Positions 3,195-42,987 of a DNA stretch of 64,000 nt are shown here, one piece after another. Below the pieces are notes generated by a model. It was given only the letters and a program-made list of their open reading frames with translations. It searched no databases and was not told the DNA's origin. Position 1 is the stretch's first letter; each line of letters opens with the position of its first letter. The translations under genes and the position numbers were made by a program. Origin of the DNA: an archaeon (lineage in GTDB: Archaea; Nanobdellota; Nanobdellia; Pacearchaeales; GW2011-AR1); NCBI GenBank assembly GCA_018657525.1, contig JABHWZ010000003.1, positions 14,840 through 78,839 on the forward strand. The letters run 5' to 3'.

Positions 3195-5630
3195 TTAATT
3201 TGCAGAATTTTCCATATCTTTTTTATACTCTTCTTTCTTTTTTTCCCAAGCTTGATTTGTGGGGCATTTTGGATTAAAGCAGAATATCCATGGTTTCTTT
3301 TTTGGTTGAAGTGCCATTAGCAGAGGGTATTGACATTCTTTGCAAATTTGTTTTGTTTTTTTGATTGTTCTATTTGGAGGAAGACTAAGAGTATTTTTAC
3401 AATTTGGGTAAGAATCGCAAGCGATGAAAGATCTTTTCCATTTTTTTGAATAATTTATTGCAAGGTCTCCTTTTTTACATTTTGGACATTGGATTATTTT
3501 GTTTTCAATTTTTTGCTGTTCTCGCTGTTTAACATTTGCTTCAAGTAATTCTTTTCCAATATCTTTTTCATTTTTTTCAAAATCTTTGGCTATCTGGGTA
3601 ATTTTTTCCTTTGCTTGATTTAATGTTTCTTGTTCTTTTTCTATTAGGTTTTTTTTGTTTTTTGTTTCGCGGATTTTTTCCATTTCTCCTTCAAATTTTC
3701 TGGTTAGTTCTGCATCAATTATTATTGGAGAATATTTTTCCAATGTATCTATTAAAGATATCCCTAATGATGTAGCTTTGATGCTTTCTCCTTGGATGTA
3801 TCCCCTGTCGTAAAGAGTTTCTAAAATTGATGCTCTCGTTGCCTTTGTTCCTAAATTCCTTTTTTCTAGTTGTGTTAATATTGAGGCCGGAGAAAATCTT
3901 TTCGGAGGCTGTGTTTCTTTTTCTTCTATCCTTGAATTGGTGATTTTTACTTCTCCCTCCATATCAGGGATTTTTTCTTCTTTTATTTTTGCGGGGTAAA
4001 TTTTTAGCCAATTTTTTTCTCGTATTACTGCACCTCTAGCTGAAAAGATTAATTCGTTCATTTTTGTTTTGACAGTTTTGTTATCAATTATTGCGTCCTC
4101 GCAGAATAGAGATAAGAATCTTCTTGCGATTAAATTATAAATTTTTTCTTCATTGCCTGATAAAATTTGTTCGTTTCCGGTAGGGTAGATGGATGGATGG
4201 GCAGGGTCTTCTTTTTTACCTTCAGTGGGGGTATTTTTTTTAATTAAGTTTTCAACCTTATATCTTTTGGAAATTTTTTTTAAAATTGTTTTGTATCCTA
4301 TTTCTTTAGGAAGTTTTTGTGAAGAGGTTCGGGGGTAAGATATTAATCCAGATAAATAAAGTGCTTGCGCGGAACGGAGAGTTTTACTGGGGGTGATTCC
4401 ATGTAATTTGTATGCTTCTCTTTGGAGGTCTGTTAAATTAAAGGGGGTTGGTGGAGGCAATATTTGTTCTCTTTTTTTTGTTTCAGCGATGGTTGTTTTT
4501 CCATTAAGATTTTTAAATTTTTCAAGTTCTTTTTTATCGAAGATATCTTGATTATGTTTTAATTCTAATTTATTTTTTTTATTGTTAATTGTTATGAATA
4601 TTTGCCAAAAAGGTTCTGATTTAAATTTGGAGATTTCTTTTTCTTTATCAACTATTAATTTTAGTGCTGGACCTTGTACTCGTCCAATTGACATAATTCT
4701 AAATTTGCCTGTTGTTTTTATTGCATTCATTAAAGCTCTTGAAAGATTGATTCCATAAAACCAATCTAGATAGTGTCTGGTTTCTCCTGCTATTGCTTGT
4801 CCCCATTCAATGGTGGGGAGTTTGTTTTCATAGGCATTATTAAGTTCATCTTTTGTTAAGGTCGAGAATTTCATTCTTTTTGCATCTTTTTGATTACAAA
4901 TATAACGAACAATGTTCATGCCGATTACTTCCCCCTCTATGTCAAAATCTGTTGCGACAGTTAATGATCCTGCATTTTTTGTTAATTTTAAAATTGTATC
5001 ATGATATTTTTTTGTGAAGTCTCCTTTTCTGGCTAAATAGTTTGGAATCCATTTGACTTCAAATATTGGAATACTTGATCCAGCAATTATTTGTTTGAGA
5101 GTGAATAAATGACCCACTGCACAAGCGACGATTATTTTTTGTCCGTTTCTATCAACTTCATAATAGGGTATTTTATTATTTTCTTGAGTTATTGTATCTC
5201 CAAGTGCGGTTGCTATTTTAAGAGCGGCTTGTGGTTTTTCAGTTATAATTAATTCATATCCTGTATTTTTTAATCCTATTTTTTGAGGATTATATTTGAC
5301 TATTTTTGAAGTTGTTGTCTTTGCTTTTTTTTTGGCTTTTTTTCTTGTTCCCTTTCTTTTTTTATATTTTCTTTTTGGTTTTATTGGAGTTGATTCAATG
5401 GTTTCTAAAGATTCTCTATCAGGTCTGCTGAACTTTTTCTCAATGGTTGCTTTGGAGATTTGTTCTTTTGATAATGGCATTTCAGGTATTTTTCTTTCTG
5501 TAATTTTTTTTTCTTCTACGATTGTGTTTTTTACTTTTTTTTCGGTTGCTCTTTCTACATTTGATTCATCTACTCTAAAAAAGTTTTCTACAATTTTTTC
5601 TTCTCGGGGTTTTTGTTTTTTTAGGGGCAT
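3195..5630 (-). CDS. topA: DNA topoisomerase, type IA, with C-terminal zinc ribbons and a lysine-rich N-terminal extension of about 120 aa
   Basis: Toprim motifs LIITEKPQAA and ATDFDIEGE; active-site region ISYPRTSSQ; C-terminal CPKC..C..C and CKEC..C..C fingers. Confidence 0.9.
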   Translation of the reverse strand: MPLKKQKPREEKIVENFFRVDESNVERATEKKVKNTIVEEKKITERKIPEMPLSKEQISKATIEKKFSRPDRESLETIESTPIKPKRKYKKRKGTRKKAKKKAKTTTSKIVKYNPQKIGLKNTGYELIITEKPQAALKIATALGDTITQENNKIPYYEVDRNGQKIIVACAVGHLFTLKQIIAGSSIPIFEVKWIPNYLARKGDFTKKYHDTILKLTKNAGSLTVATDFDIEGEVIGMNIVRYICNQKDAKRMKFSTLTKDELNNAYENKLPTIEWGQAIAGETRHYLDWFYGINLSRALMNAIKTTGKFRIMSIGRVQGPALKLIVDKEKEISKFKSEPFWQIFITINNKKNKLELKHNQDIFDKKELEKFKNLNGKTTIAETKKREQILPPPTPFNLTDLQREAYKLHGITPSKTLRSAQALYLSGLISYPRTSSQKLPKEIGYKTILKKISKRYKVENLIKKNTPTEGKKEDPAHPSIYPTGNEQILSGNEEKIYNLIARRFLSLFCEDAIIDNKTVKTKMNELIFSARGAVIREKNWLKIYPAKIKEEKIPDMEGEVKITNSRIEEKETQPPKRFSPASILTQLEKRNLGTKATRASILETLYDRGYIQGESIKATSLGISLIDTLEKYSPIIIDAELTRKFEGEMEKIRETKNKKNLIEKEQETLNQAKEKITQIAKDFEKNEKDIGKELLEANVKQREQQKIENKIIQCPKCKKGDLAINYSKKWKRSFIACDSYPNCKNTLSLPPNRTIKKTKQICKECQYPLLMALQPKKKPWIFCFNPKCPTNQAWEKKKEEYKKDMENSAN

Positions 5631-13985: not shown

Positions 13986-14129
13986 TCATATTTTCTTATA
14001 AATTATAATGAGTATAACTCCTAAAATAATTATCCAGTAAATATAACTAATTGCTTTTGGGGGGAAGAAAAATATTGAGGTAAATAAAATTAAAATTATT
14101 GTGAATAAAATTTTTTTGAAATCAGTCAT
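13986..14129 (-). CDS. possible 47-aa two-TM micro-protein, start overlapping the tfs stop
   Basis: MTDFKKILFTIILILFTSIFFFPP..WIIILGVILIIIYKKI. Its ATG lies within the last codons of tfs (TATGACTGA). Confidence 0.3.
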   Translation of the reverse strand: MTDFKKILFTIILILFTSIFFFPPKAISYIYWIIILGVILIIIYKKI

Positions 14130-14430
14130 AGTTTCGATGTGTGTGGCTGCACTTTGTGCATTTGAAGAATTTTGTTTCTGCTTCGTCTGATGCTCGTGTT
14201 TGGACTGTCCAGAAGTATGCTTCTTCGTTTCCACATTTTGTGCATTTATCCTGAACAATTGGTTCTGTTTGAATATTTTGTTTAAGGACAGTTATTTTTT
14301 TTATTTCTGGACCTTTTTCAGAAGTTTTTAATTTTGTGACTTTTCCTTTTGAAATGTAACTGCATCTTGGGCAACCTAATTTTTTAGTTTTTTTTATTAG
14401 TACTGCTCCGCATTTTGGGCAAAATTCCAT
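14122..14430 (-). CDS. tfs: transcription factor S / RNA polymerase subunit M (TFIIS-type)
   Basis: N-terminal CPKCG..CPRC ribbon and C-terminal CTKCG...QTRASDE..F.CTKC ribbon carrying the acidic loop. Confidence 0.85.
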   Translation of the reverse strand: MEFCPKCGAVLIKKTKKLGCPRCSYISKGKVTKLKTSEKGPEIKKITVLKQNIQTEPIVQDKCTKCGNEEAYFWTVQTRASDEAETKFFKCTKCSHTHRNYD

Positions 14431-14620
14431 TATATGAATCTCCCTACTAATTTTGCATCAACAATGCTTTGCTGTGTTAGACAAAACTCCATTAGAAGAT
14501 ACTCCTTACTAATTTTGCATCAACAATGCTTTGCTGTGTTAGACAAAACTCCATTAGAAGATACTCCTTACTAATTCTGCATCAACGATATTTGAAGTTA
14601 TTAGATAAAATTCCATTATA
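14421..14620 (-). repeat. about 3.2 tandem units of 62 bp, each restarting with the tfs start (ATGGARTTTTGY)
   Basis: aaaa[tc]tccat at 14421, 14483, 14545 and 14607. The units encode 20-codon uORFs linked by UAAUG overlaps. Confidence 0.9.
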
Positions 14621-26067: not shown

Positions 26068-26583
26068 TTATTGTTTAACTGCTTTTTCTTTGACTCTTCT
26101 GTTTTTTGGAATGAAATTTGAAATCTTTTTTTCTGAAACTTTTCCACAGCCCCAAAAATCTTCTTTGAACTTTATTACTTTGAATCCTCTAGTGAATTTT
26201 TCTGGTTCATTTGCAATTTCGTTTTCGGATTTGGAGGATAGATAATTTATTTCATCAAAATATAATTCTTCTCCTTTGAGATATTTTTTTGCTTGTTCTT
26301 CAGTGAGTTCTAAAATGTTTTCTGTTATTTGGTCTTTTAGTATGTGTGTGCCCTCGATACTCAATCTAATTTCGTTTTCTCCAGGGATTAATTTAGCAAA
26401 GTAAGTCCCAACTCTTTCTATTGGTATTGTCTTTTCAAGTTCCCATATCTCAGGAGCGGTTAATGAACCTTGATATAAAAATAATCTTTCTTCTCCTCGC
26501 TGAACAATTAATCCTTGAACTTCTTGAATTCCAAATTGTTTTTTTAGAAGTTGAACTATCTTTTCTTTTTCTTTTCTAGTCAT
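26068..26583 (-). CDS. Nip7-like (pre-PUA/PUA) RNA-binding protein
   Basis: The N-terminal half resembles Nip7 (..RLFLY.., VGTYFAKL). It lies next to the NSUN methylase. The 36 extra N-terminal codons of the track ORF are encoded by a repeat element. Confidence 0.45.
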   Translation of the reverse strand: MTRKEKEKIVQLLKKQFGIQEVQGLIVQRGEERLFLYQGSLTAPEIWELEKTIPIERVGTYFAKLIPGENEIRLSIEGTHILKDQITENILELTEEQAKKYLKGEELYFDEINYLSSKSENEIANEPEKFTRGFKVIKFKEDFWGCGKVSEKKISNFIPKNRRVKEKAVKQ

Positions 26584-26629
26584 TATTTTTAATCCTTTAT
26601 ATTCTCTGGAAAATTTGTGTTGTTTCATT

Positions 26630-26734
26630 GCGAGACAACCCCTTGTTTTCCTCGCGCTCCTTCCTCGAAGCTCTGATACTCCGAAGGGCACGAGAGGGTA
26701 GCATCTTTAAATTGCCTCCGTCGGATGCCACATG
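26630..26734 (-). repeat. 105-nt structured element, copy 1 (immediately 5' of an ATG on the minus strand)
   Basis: Near-full-length match to 42612..42716 in the opposite orientation. Contains the GGAGGCAA-loop hairpin and the GGGCACGAGAG module. Confidence 0.9.
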
Positions 26735-26760
26735 AGCTGATTAATTTATTTTGTTTTATT

Positions 26761-26966
26761 TTTGATATTTTCATTCTTTTATTTTCCTAAATTTACTTAT
26801 GAAGAACCCCTCTGCTCGTGAACCTTCATTGTTATTGAATCTTCTGCTTGTCATTTTATTTTTTTGAATTTTGAAATGAAGAACCCCTCTGCTCGTGAAC
26901 CTTCATTGTTATTGAATCTTCTGCTTGTCATTTTATTTTTTTGAATTTTGAAATGAAGAACCCCTC
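26761..26966 (-). repeat. triplicated NSUN gene 3' end (77-bp units) plus a codon-diverged displaced end
   Basis: Units start at 26799, 26876 and 26953. See findings. Confidence 0.9.
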
Positions 26967-28031
26967 GGTATTATTATCATGAGGATAAACTCTGCAACAT
27001 AATTTTACTTTTGGGTTGAAATTTATTTTTGGATTTTTTTCAGACTTTGCTGTTCCCTCCCGCGAACCACCCTGGGACTCGCTTAGCTCGCTTGATTTAA
27101 TTAACGCAAAGTCTTCTTTTTTTGGATTCCATTCTGTGATTCCTTCTCGACATTTTATTGGGAGTTCTACTTTTTTGATTTTAATTTTATCTCCAAATTC
27201 TTCTAGGGCCCAACTTACTATTGCTTCGTTTTCTTCTGGGGCGTGAGTGCAAGTTGAGTAAATTATTTCTCCGTCAACTTTTAAAATTTCAAAAGCGTGT
27301 TTGAATAATCTTTTTTGAATTTGTGGGAGTGCTTTTGTTACATTTTTTATGTTCCACATTTTGTAGGTTTTATAAGCGCTTCTTAAAGTTCCTTCGCCAG
27401 AACACGGGGCGTCCACAAGGATTTTGTCAAATTTTATTTCTGGGTTGAATTTTGCTAATCTTTTACAAAGTGCGGCTCCTTCTTTTCTGCTGATTATTGT
27501 ATTTGTGACTCCGCATCTTTCTAGGTTTGAAGAAAGAATTCTGAGTCGGCCCATTGAAATTTCATTGGCGATTATTGCTCCTTGGTTTTCCATTGCTGCT
27601 GCTATCTGAGTTGTTTTGGATCCGGGTGCTGCGGCTAGATCTAGGATTAATTCTCCTGCTTTTGGTTTGAGTGCAATTATCGGAAGCATTGAGGCAAGTT
27701 CTTGAATATAATAATATCCGAGTAAATGTTCTTCTGCCCTTCCGAGTTCTCCTGGTTCAAGTGAGATTAAATTATTTTCAGAATTATATTTTCCTTCGAT
27801 AATCATGACTTCCGGGTTTGATTCCCACGGGCGAGATATTTTCCATGTTTTTTCTTCTAATCTTTTTTTTAATTTTTCAGGAGATATTTTTAAGGGGTTG
27901 CAACGGATAGAATTTACTGGTTTTATTTTTAGGATATCCAAATAGGATTGAAAATCTTTTTTATCTGGAAGAAGCTGTTTTATTCGTTCTTCGAATTCAG
28001 GTTTCATTTCTGGAATTTTTATTTTTGTCAT
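26928..28031 (-). CDS. NOL1/NOP2/Sun-family RNA cytosine-C5 methyltransferase
   Basis: DLAAAPGSKT SAM motif; DAPCSGEG and YSTCT catalytic Cys motifs; C-terminal EGFFI. Confidence 0.85.
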   Translation of the reverse strand: MTKIKIPEMKPEFEERIKQLLPDKKDFQSYLDILKIKPVNSIRCNPLKISPEKLKKRLEEKTWKISRPWESNPEVMIIEGKYNSENNLISLEPGELGRAEEHLLGYYYIQELASMLPIIALKPKAGELILDLAAAPGSKTTQIAAAMENQGAIIANEISMGRLRILSSNLERCGVTNTIISRKEGAALCKRLAKFNPEIKFDKILVDAPCSGEGTLRSAYKTYKMWNIKNVTKALPQIQKRLFKHAFEILKVDGEIIYSTCTHAPEENEAIVSWALEEFGDKIKIKKVELPIKCREGITEWNPKKEDFALIKSSELSESQGGSREGTAKSEKNPKINFNPKVKLCCRVYPHDNNTEGFFISKFKKIK

Positions 28032-41636: not shown

Positions 41637-42055
41637 AAGATTTTGATGACTTTCTAAAAAGAGGGGTGGTTAAAAAACAATCTGTTAATGAGCCAAGAGC
41701 TAAAGATTTGGTTTCTGAAGCTGAAAGAAAATTAAGTTCAATGAATCGTGTTATTAAGAAAATAGGAATTGATGACGCAAATGCTAATGATATTATTGAA
41801 AATTGTTGCGATATTATTCTTAGTTTAATACGTTCGAAAATGTTTTTGAAGGGGTTTAGCGCTTCTGGAAGTGGAGCTCATGAAGCAGAAGTTTCTTTTT
41901 TAAAAAAATTGGAATTTAATGAACAACAAATCGAATTTATTAATTCTTTGAGATATTTTAGGAATGGAATTTTGTATTATGGAAAACGATTTGATAAAGA
42001 ATATGCAAAAAAAGTAGTCAAATTTTTAAAACAGGTAAAGGTTAAATTAAAATGA
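41633..42055 (+). CDS. HEPN-like domain protein (partner of the MNT)
   Basis: 140-aa all-helical protein with a 4-nt overlap with the MNT gene. The R-x4-H position reads FRNGILYY (His replaced by Tyr). Confidence 0.5.
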   Translation: MKDFDDFLKRGVVKKQSVNEPRAKDLVSEAERKLSSMNRVIKKIGIDDANANDIIENCCDIILSLIRSKMFLKGFSASGSGAHEAEVSFLKKLEFNEQQIEFINSLRYFRNGILYYGKRFDKEYAKKVVKFLKQVKVKLK

Positions 42056-42987
42056 GATCTTATAGTGTTTTGGGGAATATAGCGTTGGTTAATTTTCCGA
42101 GGGAATTTAAAGGAAGCAAAATTAATTTTGCTAAGAAAATTTTGAAAGAGAACAAATCAGTTAAGACTGTTTTGGAAAAAGTGGGAAAATTTTCTGGGAG
42201 GTTGAGGAAGATTTCAACTAAATGGTTAGCGGGGGAAAAAAATAAAGAAGTTTTGTATAAAGAAAATAATTGTGTTTTTAGATTTAATATTGATTCAACT
42301 TATTTTTCTCCGAGGCTGAGTAATGAGCGGAAAGAGATTGCAGGATTGGTTAAGAAAGATGAAAATGTTTTAGTTATGTTTGCAGGGGTGTCACCGTTTT
42401 CAATTGTTATTGCGAAGAATTCAAAAATTGGGCGTAGTTCTGCGTACCCTAAATTGCGGAATGCTAAGGTATATTCAAATGAGATAAATCGCGAAGCAAA
42501 TAAATACGCGAAGTTAAATATTGAATTAAATAAATTGAAAGAGAGGGTTGAATTGTTGCCTGGTGATATCAAAAAAGTTACTGAGAAAATTTTGAAGGGG
42601 TGGAGGGAAAACCATGCGGTATCTGTAGGAGGCAAAGAAAAGATGCCGCCCTCTCGTGCCCTTGAGGGTATCAGTGTTTCGAGGAAGGAGCGCGAGGAAA
42701 ACAAGGGGTTGCCTCGCTTTGATGTGATTGTAATGCCGCGACCGCAGTTGAAAGATAGTTTTTTGGAGCAGGCGTTTAAGTTGTCAAAACGCGGAACGCG
42801 AATTTATTATTATGATTTTTGTAAAATTGATGCTCTTGAAGGAACAAAGTATTTTGATTTGATTATTAAGAAGATTAAAGATGAGGCAAAAAAAGCTGGG
42901 AAGAAAATTAGAATTGTGAATAAGAAATTGGCGGGAGATATTGCTCCGTATAAGTATCGTGTGCGGGTTGATTTTATAATTTTGTAA
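42052..42987 (+). CDS. Trm5/Taw22-like tRNA (m1G37) methyltransferase carrying two in-frame repeat insertions
   Basis: YFSPRLSNER, VLVMFAGVSPFSI, YSNEIN, and FDVIVMPRP (NPPY-equivalent). Confidence 0.7.
   Translation: MRSYSVLGNIALVNFPREFKGSKINFAKKILKENKSVKTVLEKVGKFSGRLRKISTKWLAGEKNKEVLYKENNCVFRFNIDSTYFSPRLSNERKEIAGLVKKDENVLVMFAGVSPFSIVIAKNSKIGRSSAYPKLRNAKVYSNEINREANKYAKLNIELNKLKERVELLPGDIKKVTEKILKGWRENHAVSVGGKEKMPPSRALEGISVSRKEREENKGLPRFDVIVMPRPQLKDSFLEQAFKLSKRGTRIYYYDFCKIDALEGTKYFDLIIKKIKDEAKKAGKKIRIVNKKLAGDIAPYKYRVRVDFIIL
42612..42716 (+). repeat. 105-nt structured element, copy 2, in frame inside the Trm5-like CDS
   Basis: Encodes ..HAVSVGGKEKMPPSRALEGISVSRKEREENKGLPR.. between conserved Trm5 motifs. 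Confidence 0.9.

Follow-up and report, generated by a model that had tools for sequence, protein, structure and literature searches.

The window analysed here is a stretch of 64,000 nucleotides (nt) from contig JABHWZ010000003.1 (assembly GCA_018657525.1; G+C about 32%) of an archaeon of the Pacearchaeales, and the sequence in question lies directly behind its gene for an NSUN protein, an RsmF-type 5-methylcytosine (m5C) RNA methyltransferase. On balance we read this sequence as an old, locus-specific tandem array of variable copy number that derives from the duplicated NSUN 3' end and whose units would act, in a regulatory capacity, as relay mini open reading frames (mini-ORFs) bearing a hairpin. 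Modules of this kind stand behind NSUN in at least nine distant DPANN lineages, the window and eight others. A full-text search of the published literature found no description of the module; as far as that search shows, a conserved tandem gene-end module in DPANN archaea is undescribed. The array and the gene end that it copies comprise the following features:

26928..28031, minus strand: gene of the NSUN/RsmF-type m5C RNA methyltransferase, 367 amino acids (open reading frame, Pfam, homologues)
26953..26966, minus strand: core copy 1, GAGGGGTTCTTCAT, codons E-G-F-F-I, within the NSUN gene (sequence)
26851..26931, minus strand: module 1, mini-ORF MTSRRFNNNEGSRAEGFFISKFKKIK followed by a stop (translation; covariance-model match of 91.3 bits; exact repeat)
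26771..26854, minus strand: module 2 (terminal), mini-ORF MTSRRFNNNEGSRAEGFFISKFRKIKE followed by a stop (translation; 'B' tail closest to that of the related locus L002)
26875..26907, minus strand: hairpin 1, in which the spacer AAUGAAGG... pairs with ...CUUCAUU of the following core (RNAfold -7.8 kcal/mol, z = -1.9)
26799..26830, minus strand: hairpin 2, formed likewise between the second spacer and the terminal core (sequence; consensus structure)

On the minus strand the NSUN gene ends GAG GGG TTC TTC ATT TCA AAA TTC AAA AAA ATA AAA TGA at 26966-26928 (39 nt), which gives the protein the C-terminus TEGFFISKFKKIK, the proximal or 'A' tail. A spacer of 38 nt (caagcag...cacgagca, 26927-26890) follows directly, and then exact second copies of the gene end (26889-26851) and of the spacer (26850-26813). 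The array closes with a third, diverged gene end, GAGGGGTTCTTCATAAGTAAATTTAGGAAAATAAAAGAATGA, at 26812-26771 (GAG GGG TTC TTC ATA AGT AAA TTT AGG AAA ATA AAA GAA TGA). This distal end has ATA/AGT/TTT where the proximal one has ATT/TCA/TTC; from the proximal to the distal tail the changes are T>A, TCA>AGT, C>T and AA>GG, together with an indel of 3 nt. Tandem Repeats Finder and a repeat search returned a period of 77 nt, 2.2 copies and 100% matches over 26799-26966; the 64 kb contain two copies of the 38-mer and three of the 14-nt core, where shuffled sequences would have none. An earlier note on this DNA had described a gene end in three copies with the outermost diverged, and the description is exact in its coordinates, its period of 77 and its threefold 14-nt core.

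Read as coding sequence, module 1 consists of the spacer (26890-26927) and the second gene-end copy (26851-26889); its ATG overlaps the NSUN stop in the form ATGA, and its own stop overlaps the next ATG. Module 2 joins the second spacer (26813-26850) to the diverged 'B' end (26771-26812), which carries a Shine-Dalgarno-like (SD-like) AGGA ahead of the next ATG. Each 77-nt unit (78 minus the 1-nt ATGA overlap) is a mini-ORF of 26–27 amino acids and, because 77 nt are 25 codons plus TG, a duplicate that ends at an ATG is automatically in frame. Two further reading frames complete the chain:

26625..26774, minus strand: ORF of 49 amino acids that tiles a GC-rich element of about 105 nt, with an ATGA overlap at each end, from the array to the PUA gene
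26068..26628, minus strand: gene of a PUA-domain protein, 186 amino acids (Pfam Methyltranf_PUA 1.7e-06, above cut-off; gene calls)

The stop of the 49-residue ORF shares its ATGA with the start of the PUA gene. Four consecutive ATGA junctions thus link NSUN, mini-ORF 1, mini-ORF 2, the 49-residue ORF and PUA, and the interval is fully tiled.

The copy number of the unit varies between near-identical genomes, since the locus L001, from another sample and another assembly, has one 77-nt unit where the window has two. Its order is proximal end, spacer, distal end, and over 7 kb its identity to the window amounts to 99.8-100%, with 7 mismatches counted in about 7 kb. A contig from the Joint Genome Institute (JGI) has the two-unit spacing. 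Such a change in copy number would be expected from unequal recombination or slippage. All these sequences are short-read metagenome assemblies, in which three or more units would be collapsed, and this is the ground for suspecting strain collapse or a repeat loop in the assembly. However, the exactly periodic stretch measures 168 nt with a period of 77, so that by arithmetic k-mers longer than 91 nt are unique, which argues against a graph artefact. The name of the L001 contig (k141_...) suggests a MEGAHIT assembly with k = 141; the repeated k-mers, of at most 91 nt, lie below this value and the path should have been unambiguous. In addition, independent assemblies give one and two units with identical junctions, and the same architecture occurs in ten unrelated assemblies from different assemblers. 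An artefact is largely refuted and keeps next to no probability.

The module was sought in 80 NSUN loci from species-representative genomes and by a degenerate-pattern scan of metagenomes. It stands directly behind NSUN in five of the 80 (L016, L022, L035, L048 and L077) and in the metagenome contigs L088, L091 and L092. Carriers hold 1-3 added units of 77-80 nt, and L073 has a plain, hairpin-less and decaying 71-nt duplicate of its last 24 codons; the unit lengths 71, 77 and 80 nt are all 2 modulo 3. A covariance model of the unit scored 82-97 bits in carriers with the hairpin and 46-51 bits in L022, and its search of all loci found no further carriers, the weaker matches being the NSUN gene ends themselves. 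The carrier NSUN proteins are 55-71% identical to one another and are scattered over the NSUN tree, each having closer non-carrier relatives (L035/L043 87%, L048/L042 81%, window/L002 78%). As the gene after the array differs between carriers (PUA, P-loop kinase, Fic protein or Cys-rich ORFs), the module belongs to the NSUN end and not to the downstream gene. The first 45 nt of the module are 62-82% identical between lineages, and for the conserved 45 nt of NSUN adjoining the core the range in these genomes is 62-80%; a module that has diverged about as much as this part of NSUN would be old and not recently transferred. In L088 and L022 the inner units are identical and the terminal one is diverged. 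In the window, L048, L088 and L092 the SD-like AGG codons are better in the terminal tail than in the others, and the reverse was never seen, which suggests that the last tail keeps the restart signals for the real downstream gene.

The non-tail half of the module has a single strongly conserved part, the block AATGAAGG.T.CCGAG. This is the reverse complement of the core that follows it (GGGATTYTTCATTG), and the two would form a stem of 12-14 bp with a 7-nt loop. In hairpin 2 of the window one closing pair is lost, as the tail reads CTTCATA. RNAfold predicted -18.3 kcal/mol (z -5.0) for L016, -17.6 (z -5.0) for L088, -16.7 (z -4.4) for L077, -16.5 (z -3.7) for L022, -12.1 (z -2.0) for L092, -11.4 (z -1.8) for L048 and -11.3 (z -2.3) for L091. 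In the RNAalifold consensus helix of ten units 91.7% of the cells are paired, against 41-69% when the partner is slid. The G-U pairs of the helix work only in the sense strand, and RNA is therefore indicated. A fresh fold-back (inverted) copy would place an A opposite U where every lineage has G, and the sharing of that G argues for one origin rather than for repeated de novo formation. Pairing of the NSUN core with downstream sequence is not a general feature, the median z in non-carriers being -0.5, and a scan for bacterial-type terminators called none at the units.

The reading frame of the module is likewise kept open. Across the carriers its first half contains 1, 16 and 17 stops in frames 0, 1 and 2, and in shuffled sequences the eight in-frame versions would all be open with a probability of about 1e-4. 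An open frame is what a functional micropeptide that mimics the C-terminal strand of NSUN (...EGFFIAKFKKIK) would call for, and a consensus can be written as M-x-K-x-K-x-x-x-N-E-G-[SC]-R-[VA]-[EK]-GFF-[IV]-A-K-F-[KR]-[KR]-x-K. Yet the variable columns, 6, 10 and 9 by codon position, are not distributed as in coding sequence. The conserved residues are precisely those that fall on the 5' arm of the hairpin, and in L022 and L048 the peptide lacks an ATG start. As selection on a peptide would have left another codon-position pattern, the conservation of 'NEGSR' probably follows from that of the stem, and a micropeptide function seems to us very improbable.

The ancestry of the two tails was traced by comparison with related loci. 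L002 holds the closest NSUN orthologue (70% identity by BLASTP, 78% in the trimmed alignment) and is syntenic with the window. Its gene ends ATA AGT AAA TTT AAG AAA GTG AAA AAA TGA and runs into the same GC-rich downstream element as in the window, and on this ground the distal copy reads as the ancestral, in-place NSUN gene end. The gene of L006 ends ATA AGC AAG TTT AGA AAA ATA AAG GAT TAA. Among 87 lineages the best match of the distal tail is L002, with 21 of 24 bases. The distal tail therefore has coding ancestry and is not a decayed target-site duplication, as the earlier note had held when it took the outer copy for a homologous gene end; and among the orthologous NSUN 3' ends, whose alignment it had proposed as a check, L002 presents an empty-site-like state with a distal-type end. 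The best match of the proximal tail among the same lineages is the unrelated L007 (23 of 24 bases), and several other unrelated, AAA-rich tails reach 22 of 24. The likeness to L007 rests mostly on AAA codons and could be convergent.

A proximal end that is a diverged synonym of the distal native end, an identical 14-nt core flanking the unit and a relative in an empty-site-like state are all features that the remnant of a site-specific integrative element (virus or plasmid) would leave at the NSUN 3' end, with the units as its attL/attR arms. The earlier note had drawn such a picture of attL, tandem element and attR. Of that picture the direct repeat with identical cores at both ends and the distally displaced native end stand; the recombinase, the cargo and a spacer occurring elsewhere were not found. 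In the syntenic neighbourhood, whose conservation with L002 is itself a point against integration, no tyrosine or serine recombinase, integrase or other mobility gene adjoins the array, as the note had remarked along with the element's small size of only 77 bp. The unit has no cargo-bearing body and was not seen in other contexts. Moreover, all nine lineages share the same tiny size, frame and ATGA overlaps, to which independent decay would not converge, and the spacer sequences were not found in the viral, metagenome and genome collections. A search of the metagenome and genome collections with the 22-nt centre of the spacer, and of the viral collection with the full 38-mer, gave no match, which shows only that this population is absent there; a degenerate junction pattern retrieved only NSUN ends and chance matches, including one chance viral contig, and the conserved 16-mer occurs nowhere else in 0.9 Mb of loci. 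With no recombinase, a length of 77 nt and a family at the same position elsewhere, the note's proposal of an incoming mobile element with a surrogate gene end is not supported, and the remnant of an integrative element is quite improbable.

Import could also have occurred without a recombinase. A naive NSUN gene would then have received a foreign proximal tail together with the module, and its native tail would have been displaced downstream; the left arm of the exchange would be conserved NSUN sequence and the right arm the module's second tail, possibly a C-terminal displacement in miniature. The patchy distribution of the carriers accords with this, and so does the finding that in the window and L048 the last tail matches that of the non-carrier sister and the first is the odd one. 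In the protein, the last 30 residues are closer to P0004 and P0007 (26/30) than to the sister P0002 (22/30), to which the centre is 88-90% identical, and the 23/24 match of the proximal tail to L007 points the same way. However, the mosaic signal amounts to 4 residues and an AAA-rich proximal tail converges easily. The modules are as diverged as the conserved NSUN coding sequence, and near-identical ones were not found in distant hosts. A core-to-core deletion in the sisters would also leave a distal-type tail, so that the pattern of a native last tail does not discriminate, and the right-arm homology measures only 14-39 nt. We regard such an import as unlikely.

In the tandem relay array that we favour, a ribosome terminating on NSUN would restart on the first mini-ORF at the ATGA and move through the stem-loop; at the stop of the duplicated tail it would terminate and begin anew on the next mini-ORF. 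The relay would end at the ancestral tail, whose SD-like AGGA and ATGA would serve the 49-residue ORF and then PUA. Experiments in an archaeon and a bacterium showed that termination-reinitiation strictly couples ATGA-overlapping gene pairs (Huber et al. 2019, PMC6728339). Each relay with its hairpin may alter the translation or the transcript that reaches the downstream cistrons. The array would grow and shrink by unequal recombination or slippage between identical cores and units, and the outermost tail, at the array edge, would escape homogenisation and retain the old codons. Loss by recombination between direct repeats would leave the distal tail as the gene end, which would explain why the sister lineages carry distal-type codons. 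As the module is old and kept in several DPANN lineages, we infer selection on the hairpin and the open frame. Most plausibly the module would be a device for tuning or insulating translation, or the fate of the mRNA, between NSUN and the cistrons that follow, with copy number as a rheostat.

Several points weigh against this account. The window's own hairpin is weak (-7.8 kcal/mol, z -1.9), and function may be relaxed here. Covariation is thin, with one compensatory pair (G-C to A-U) and many G-U pairs, and translation, expression and RNA structure are all predicted. The unit of L048, of 78 nt with an early stop, breaks the rule of ATGA-linked ORFs, and the units of L022, also of 78 nt, are in frame with NSUN and have TGA instead of CGA. 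The first 15 nt of the L048 module equal the start of its own PUA gene, which a single ancient origin would not predict, and vertical inheritance needs very many independent losses.

The weak hairpin of the window would also suit neutral junk, that is, a slippage-prone and functionless duplication tolerated since NSUN and the downstream gene stay intact. The copy-number difference between near-identical genomes, the lack of the module in most lineages and the locus L073, where a plain decaying duplicate exists at the site, are compatible with it as well. However, a 14-bp stem and an open frame persist at 55-71% NSUN identity, direct repeats 77 nt apart should vanish quickly without selection, and the shared G-U pattern argues against repeated fresh origin. 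We find neutrality doubtful. Little credence is also given to two other proposals, which may be combined. One is a selfish or semi-selfish recombinase-free cassette that would spread among DPANN archaea by homologous recombination through the NSUN core; both its flanks would copy the universally conserved NSUN core, and each arrival would install a tail and displace the native one. In the other, the hairpin would be a substrate-mimic operator bound by the split NSUN/PUA methyltransferase, and array length would set the autoregulatory feedback.

Other identities were considered and rejected. The regular 39-nt repeats and 38-nt spacers recall a CRISPR array, but the two spacers are identical and the repeat is the end of a protein gene. 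For a bulge-helix-bulge (BHB) mRNA intron, the sequence folds no better than shuffles (z +0.46 and +0.31) and no BHB motif was found. In a diversity-generating retroelement the differences would be adenine-specific, which they are not, and no reverse transcriptase was found in the neighbourhood. Against the Rfam 15 families, including C/D-box sRNA, the best snoRNA models reached 17-19 bits near the arrays, with cut-offs of 52-70, and only two tRNAs of the window exceeded the gathering score.

Some carriers show peculiarities of their own at the junction. In L048 (4268-4350) a run of 7 A puts the 78-nt unit out of frame. The units of L022 (6943-7240) include a lineage-specific tail extension, ELEGGI..., where the native tail reads EVNGGVIR. 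In L035 (7046-7339) an ORF encoding 97 amino acids, rich in Cys and without a Pfam match, lies exactly between the ATGA of the module and that of PUA; it is absent from the sister L043 (87% identical), and AAAAYAAAATGA of the NSUN tail recurs at the right edge of the insertion. At L091 (947-1890) and other loci unrelated genes stand in long chains of ATGA overlaps, for example a mini-ORF, a Fic-domain protein, a cytidylyltransferase-like protein and a further gene. An AGGAGG is often encoded in the NSUN tail immediately ahead of the overlap, so that the last codons also serve the next gene as its ribosome-binding site. Possible sources of the first half of the module were sought by eye in PUA gene starts (L005 ATGACAAG; the LNEKEK motif), in P-loop kinase starts (GSGK) and in NSUN's own CRV...NNTEG, and none of these likenesses was convincing.

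The NSUN protein matches Pfam Methyltr_RsmB-F (5.7e-46) and RsmF_N (6.9e-11) and is an m5C RNA methyltransferase of the RsmB/F family with an RsmF N-terminal domain. At least 24 contigs encode a protein identical to it. Its homologues number more than 7,000, the top-scoring ones being from DPANN archaea, and the homologues and related loci belong to DPANN archaea named Pacearchaeota, Woesearchaeota or Nanoarchaeota. Because the downstream gene encodes the RsmF PUA-like domain, NSUN (catalytic half) and PUA (C-terminal half) make up a split RsmF-like enzyme; a fused NSUN-PUA homologue of 619 amino acids, P0098, exists. The neighbourhood comprises DNA polymerase B, two ORFs without a Pfam match, NSUN, PUA, an M24 peptidase and CDC48, and the order NSUN-PUA-M24-CDC48 is conserved in L002. 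The 49-residue ORF, which has no Pfam match, corresponds there to an ORF of 38 residues.

Two copies of its GC-rich element of about 105 nt, 85% identical to each other, lie in the window, at 26625-26740 (minus strand) and at 42613-42717 (plus strand). The first copy is read as the 49-residue, ATGA-bounded ORF between the NSUN array and PUA, and the second lies in frame within a TRM5/TYW2 methyltransferase ORF (42052-42987), where it splits the Pfam match in two. A weak third copy is possible at 60574-60635, and L002 (3495-3595) has the element at the same NSUN/PUA junction, shorter by 18 nt. In its apparent in-frame insertion into ORFs it recalls the Rickettsia palindromic elements. The NSUN gene itself contains, at 27043-27113 (minus strand), a GC-rich in-frame insertion encoding ...SSELSESQGGSREGTAKSE... 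and flanked by the 8-bp inverted repeat GACTTTGC/GCAAAGTC; the sisters L002 and L005 lack this insertion. Different GC-rich in-frame insertions are found at several positions in NSUN homologues (P0004, P0005, P0008, P0011, P0027 and others). A further tandem repeat, with a period of 40 nt, 2.2 copies and 76% matches, lies at 4233-4318.

A second array of the same design is present in the window at 14430-14616 (minus strand), upstream of a gene for a TFS/RPB9-type Zn-ribbon protein (14122-14430). It has three 62-nt units that form mini-ORFs of 20 amino acids, MEFYLITSNIVDAELVRSIF, MEFCLTQQSIVDAKLVRSIF and MEFCLTQQSIVDAKLVGRFI. The units start with the TFS gene's own MEFC codons, hold AAGGAG and end in TAATG overlapping the next start (62 = 63-1 nt), and the outermost copy is the most diverged. 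Since the design is the same, junction duplications that keep a chain of coupled ORFs appear to recur, which suggests that the mechanism is general in this genome.

If the relay reading is true, archaea with tiny genomes keep at one conserved gene junction a device that recycles a gene end and can be amplified in tandem. It would unite a translated relay ORF, a stem-loop with a coding arm and a duplicated ribosome-binding or restart site. Its repeat number would tune the stoichiometry of the split-enzyme halves or insulate neighbouring cistrons, and it would bear on the control of expression in long ATGA-chained DPANN operons. Such arrays mimic att-site scars and CRISPR-like repeat-spacer patterns, and the 26-residue ORFs hidden in them are expected to be skipped by standard gene callers for their length.

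Among known systems, integrative elements duplicate the 3' ends of tRNA, transfer-messenger RNA (tmRNA) and protein-gene targets at attL/attR. The array resembles these duplications in its proximal replacement end, its short identical core and the native end displaced downstream, and also in that the replacement differs from the native end at synonymous sites. Unlike them, the module has neither recombinase nor cargo, measures 77 nt, lies in frame and is ATGA-coupled; it is old, co-diverges with its host and keeps to one locus, and its copy number would change through homologous or slippage events. In the C-terminal displacement of Rhs and contact-dependent inhibition (CDI) proteins, with its 'orphan' modules, a conserved coding motif likewise marks the junction, and a new C-terminal piece is in use as the old one persists downstream with a stub of the motif. 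Yet the pieces displaced there are toxin-immunity cassettes of hundreds of codons, whereas here they are near-synonymous ends of 12 residues and import is putative.

The array shares with variable number tandem repeat (VNTR) and contingency loci its exact head-to-tail units, the difference in copy number between near-identical genomes and the diverged edge copy. In contrast to those loci, its unit contains an ORF, a hairpin and SD/ATGA signals and is conserved in very distant lineages, and we know of no phenotype switch attached to it. Repetitive extragenic palindromic (REP) sequences and bacterial interspersed mosaic elements (BIMEs) of enterobacteria are thought to set differential mRNA stability or expression, and they too are stable intercistronic stem-loops, sometimes in tandem clusters. 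The stem-loops of the module fold at -11 to -18 kcal/mol elsewhere and at -7.8 kcal/mol (z -1.9) in the window. However, REPs are non-coding and dispersed in hundreds of copies, whereas in the 64-kb window and the flanks of 87 loci the motif occurs only at the NSUN end, as a predicted in-frame ORF with a stem arm that copies coding sequence. ATGA-coupled gene pairs (PMC6728339; PMC10666635) likewise have 4-nt overlaps and an SD sequence within the upstream ORF, and their partners, too, belong to one enzyme as its subunits; here, serial relay ORFs with hairpins stand between the partners, their number varies and the coupling is predicted. The module thus combines known kinds of element, namely VNTRs, coupled overlapping ORFs and intercistronic stem-loops.

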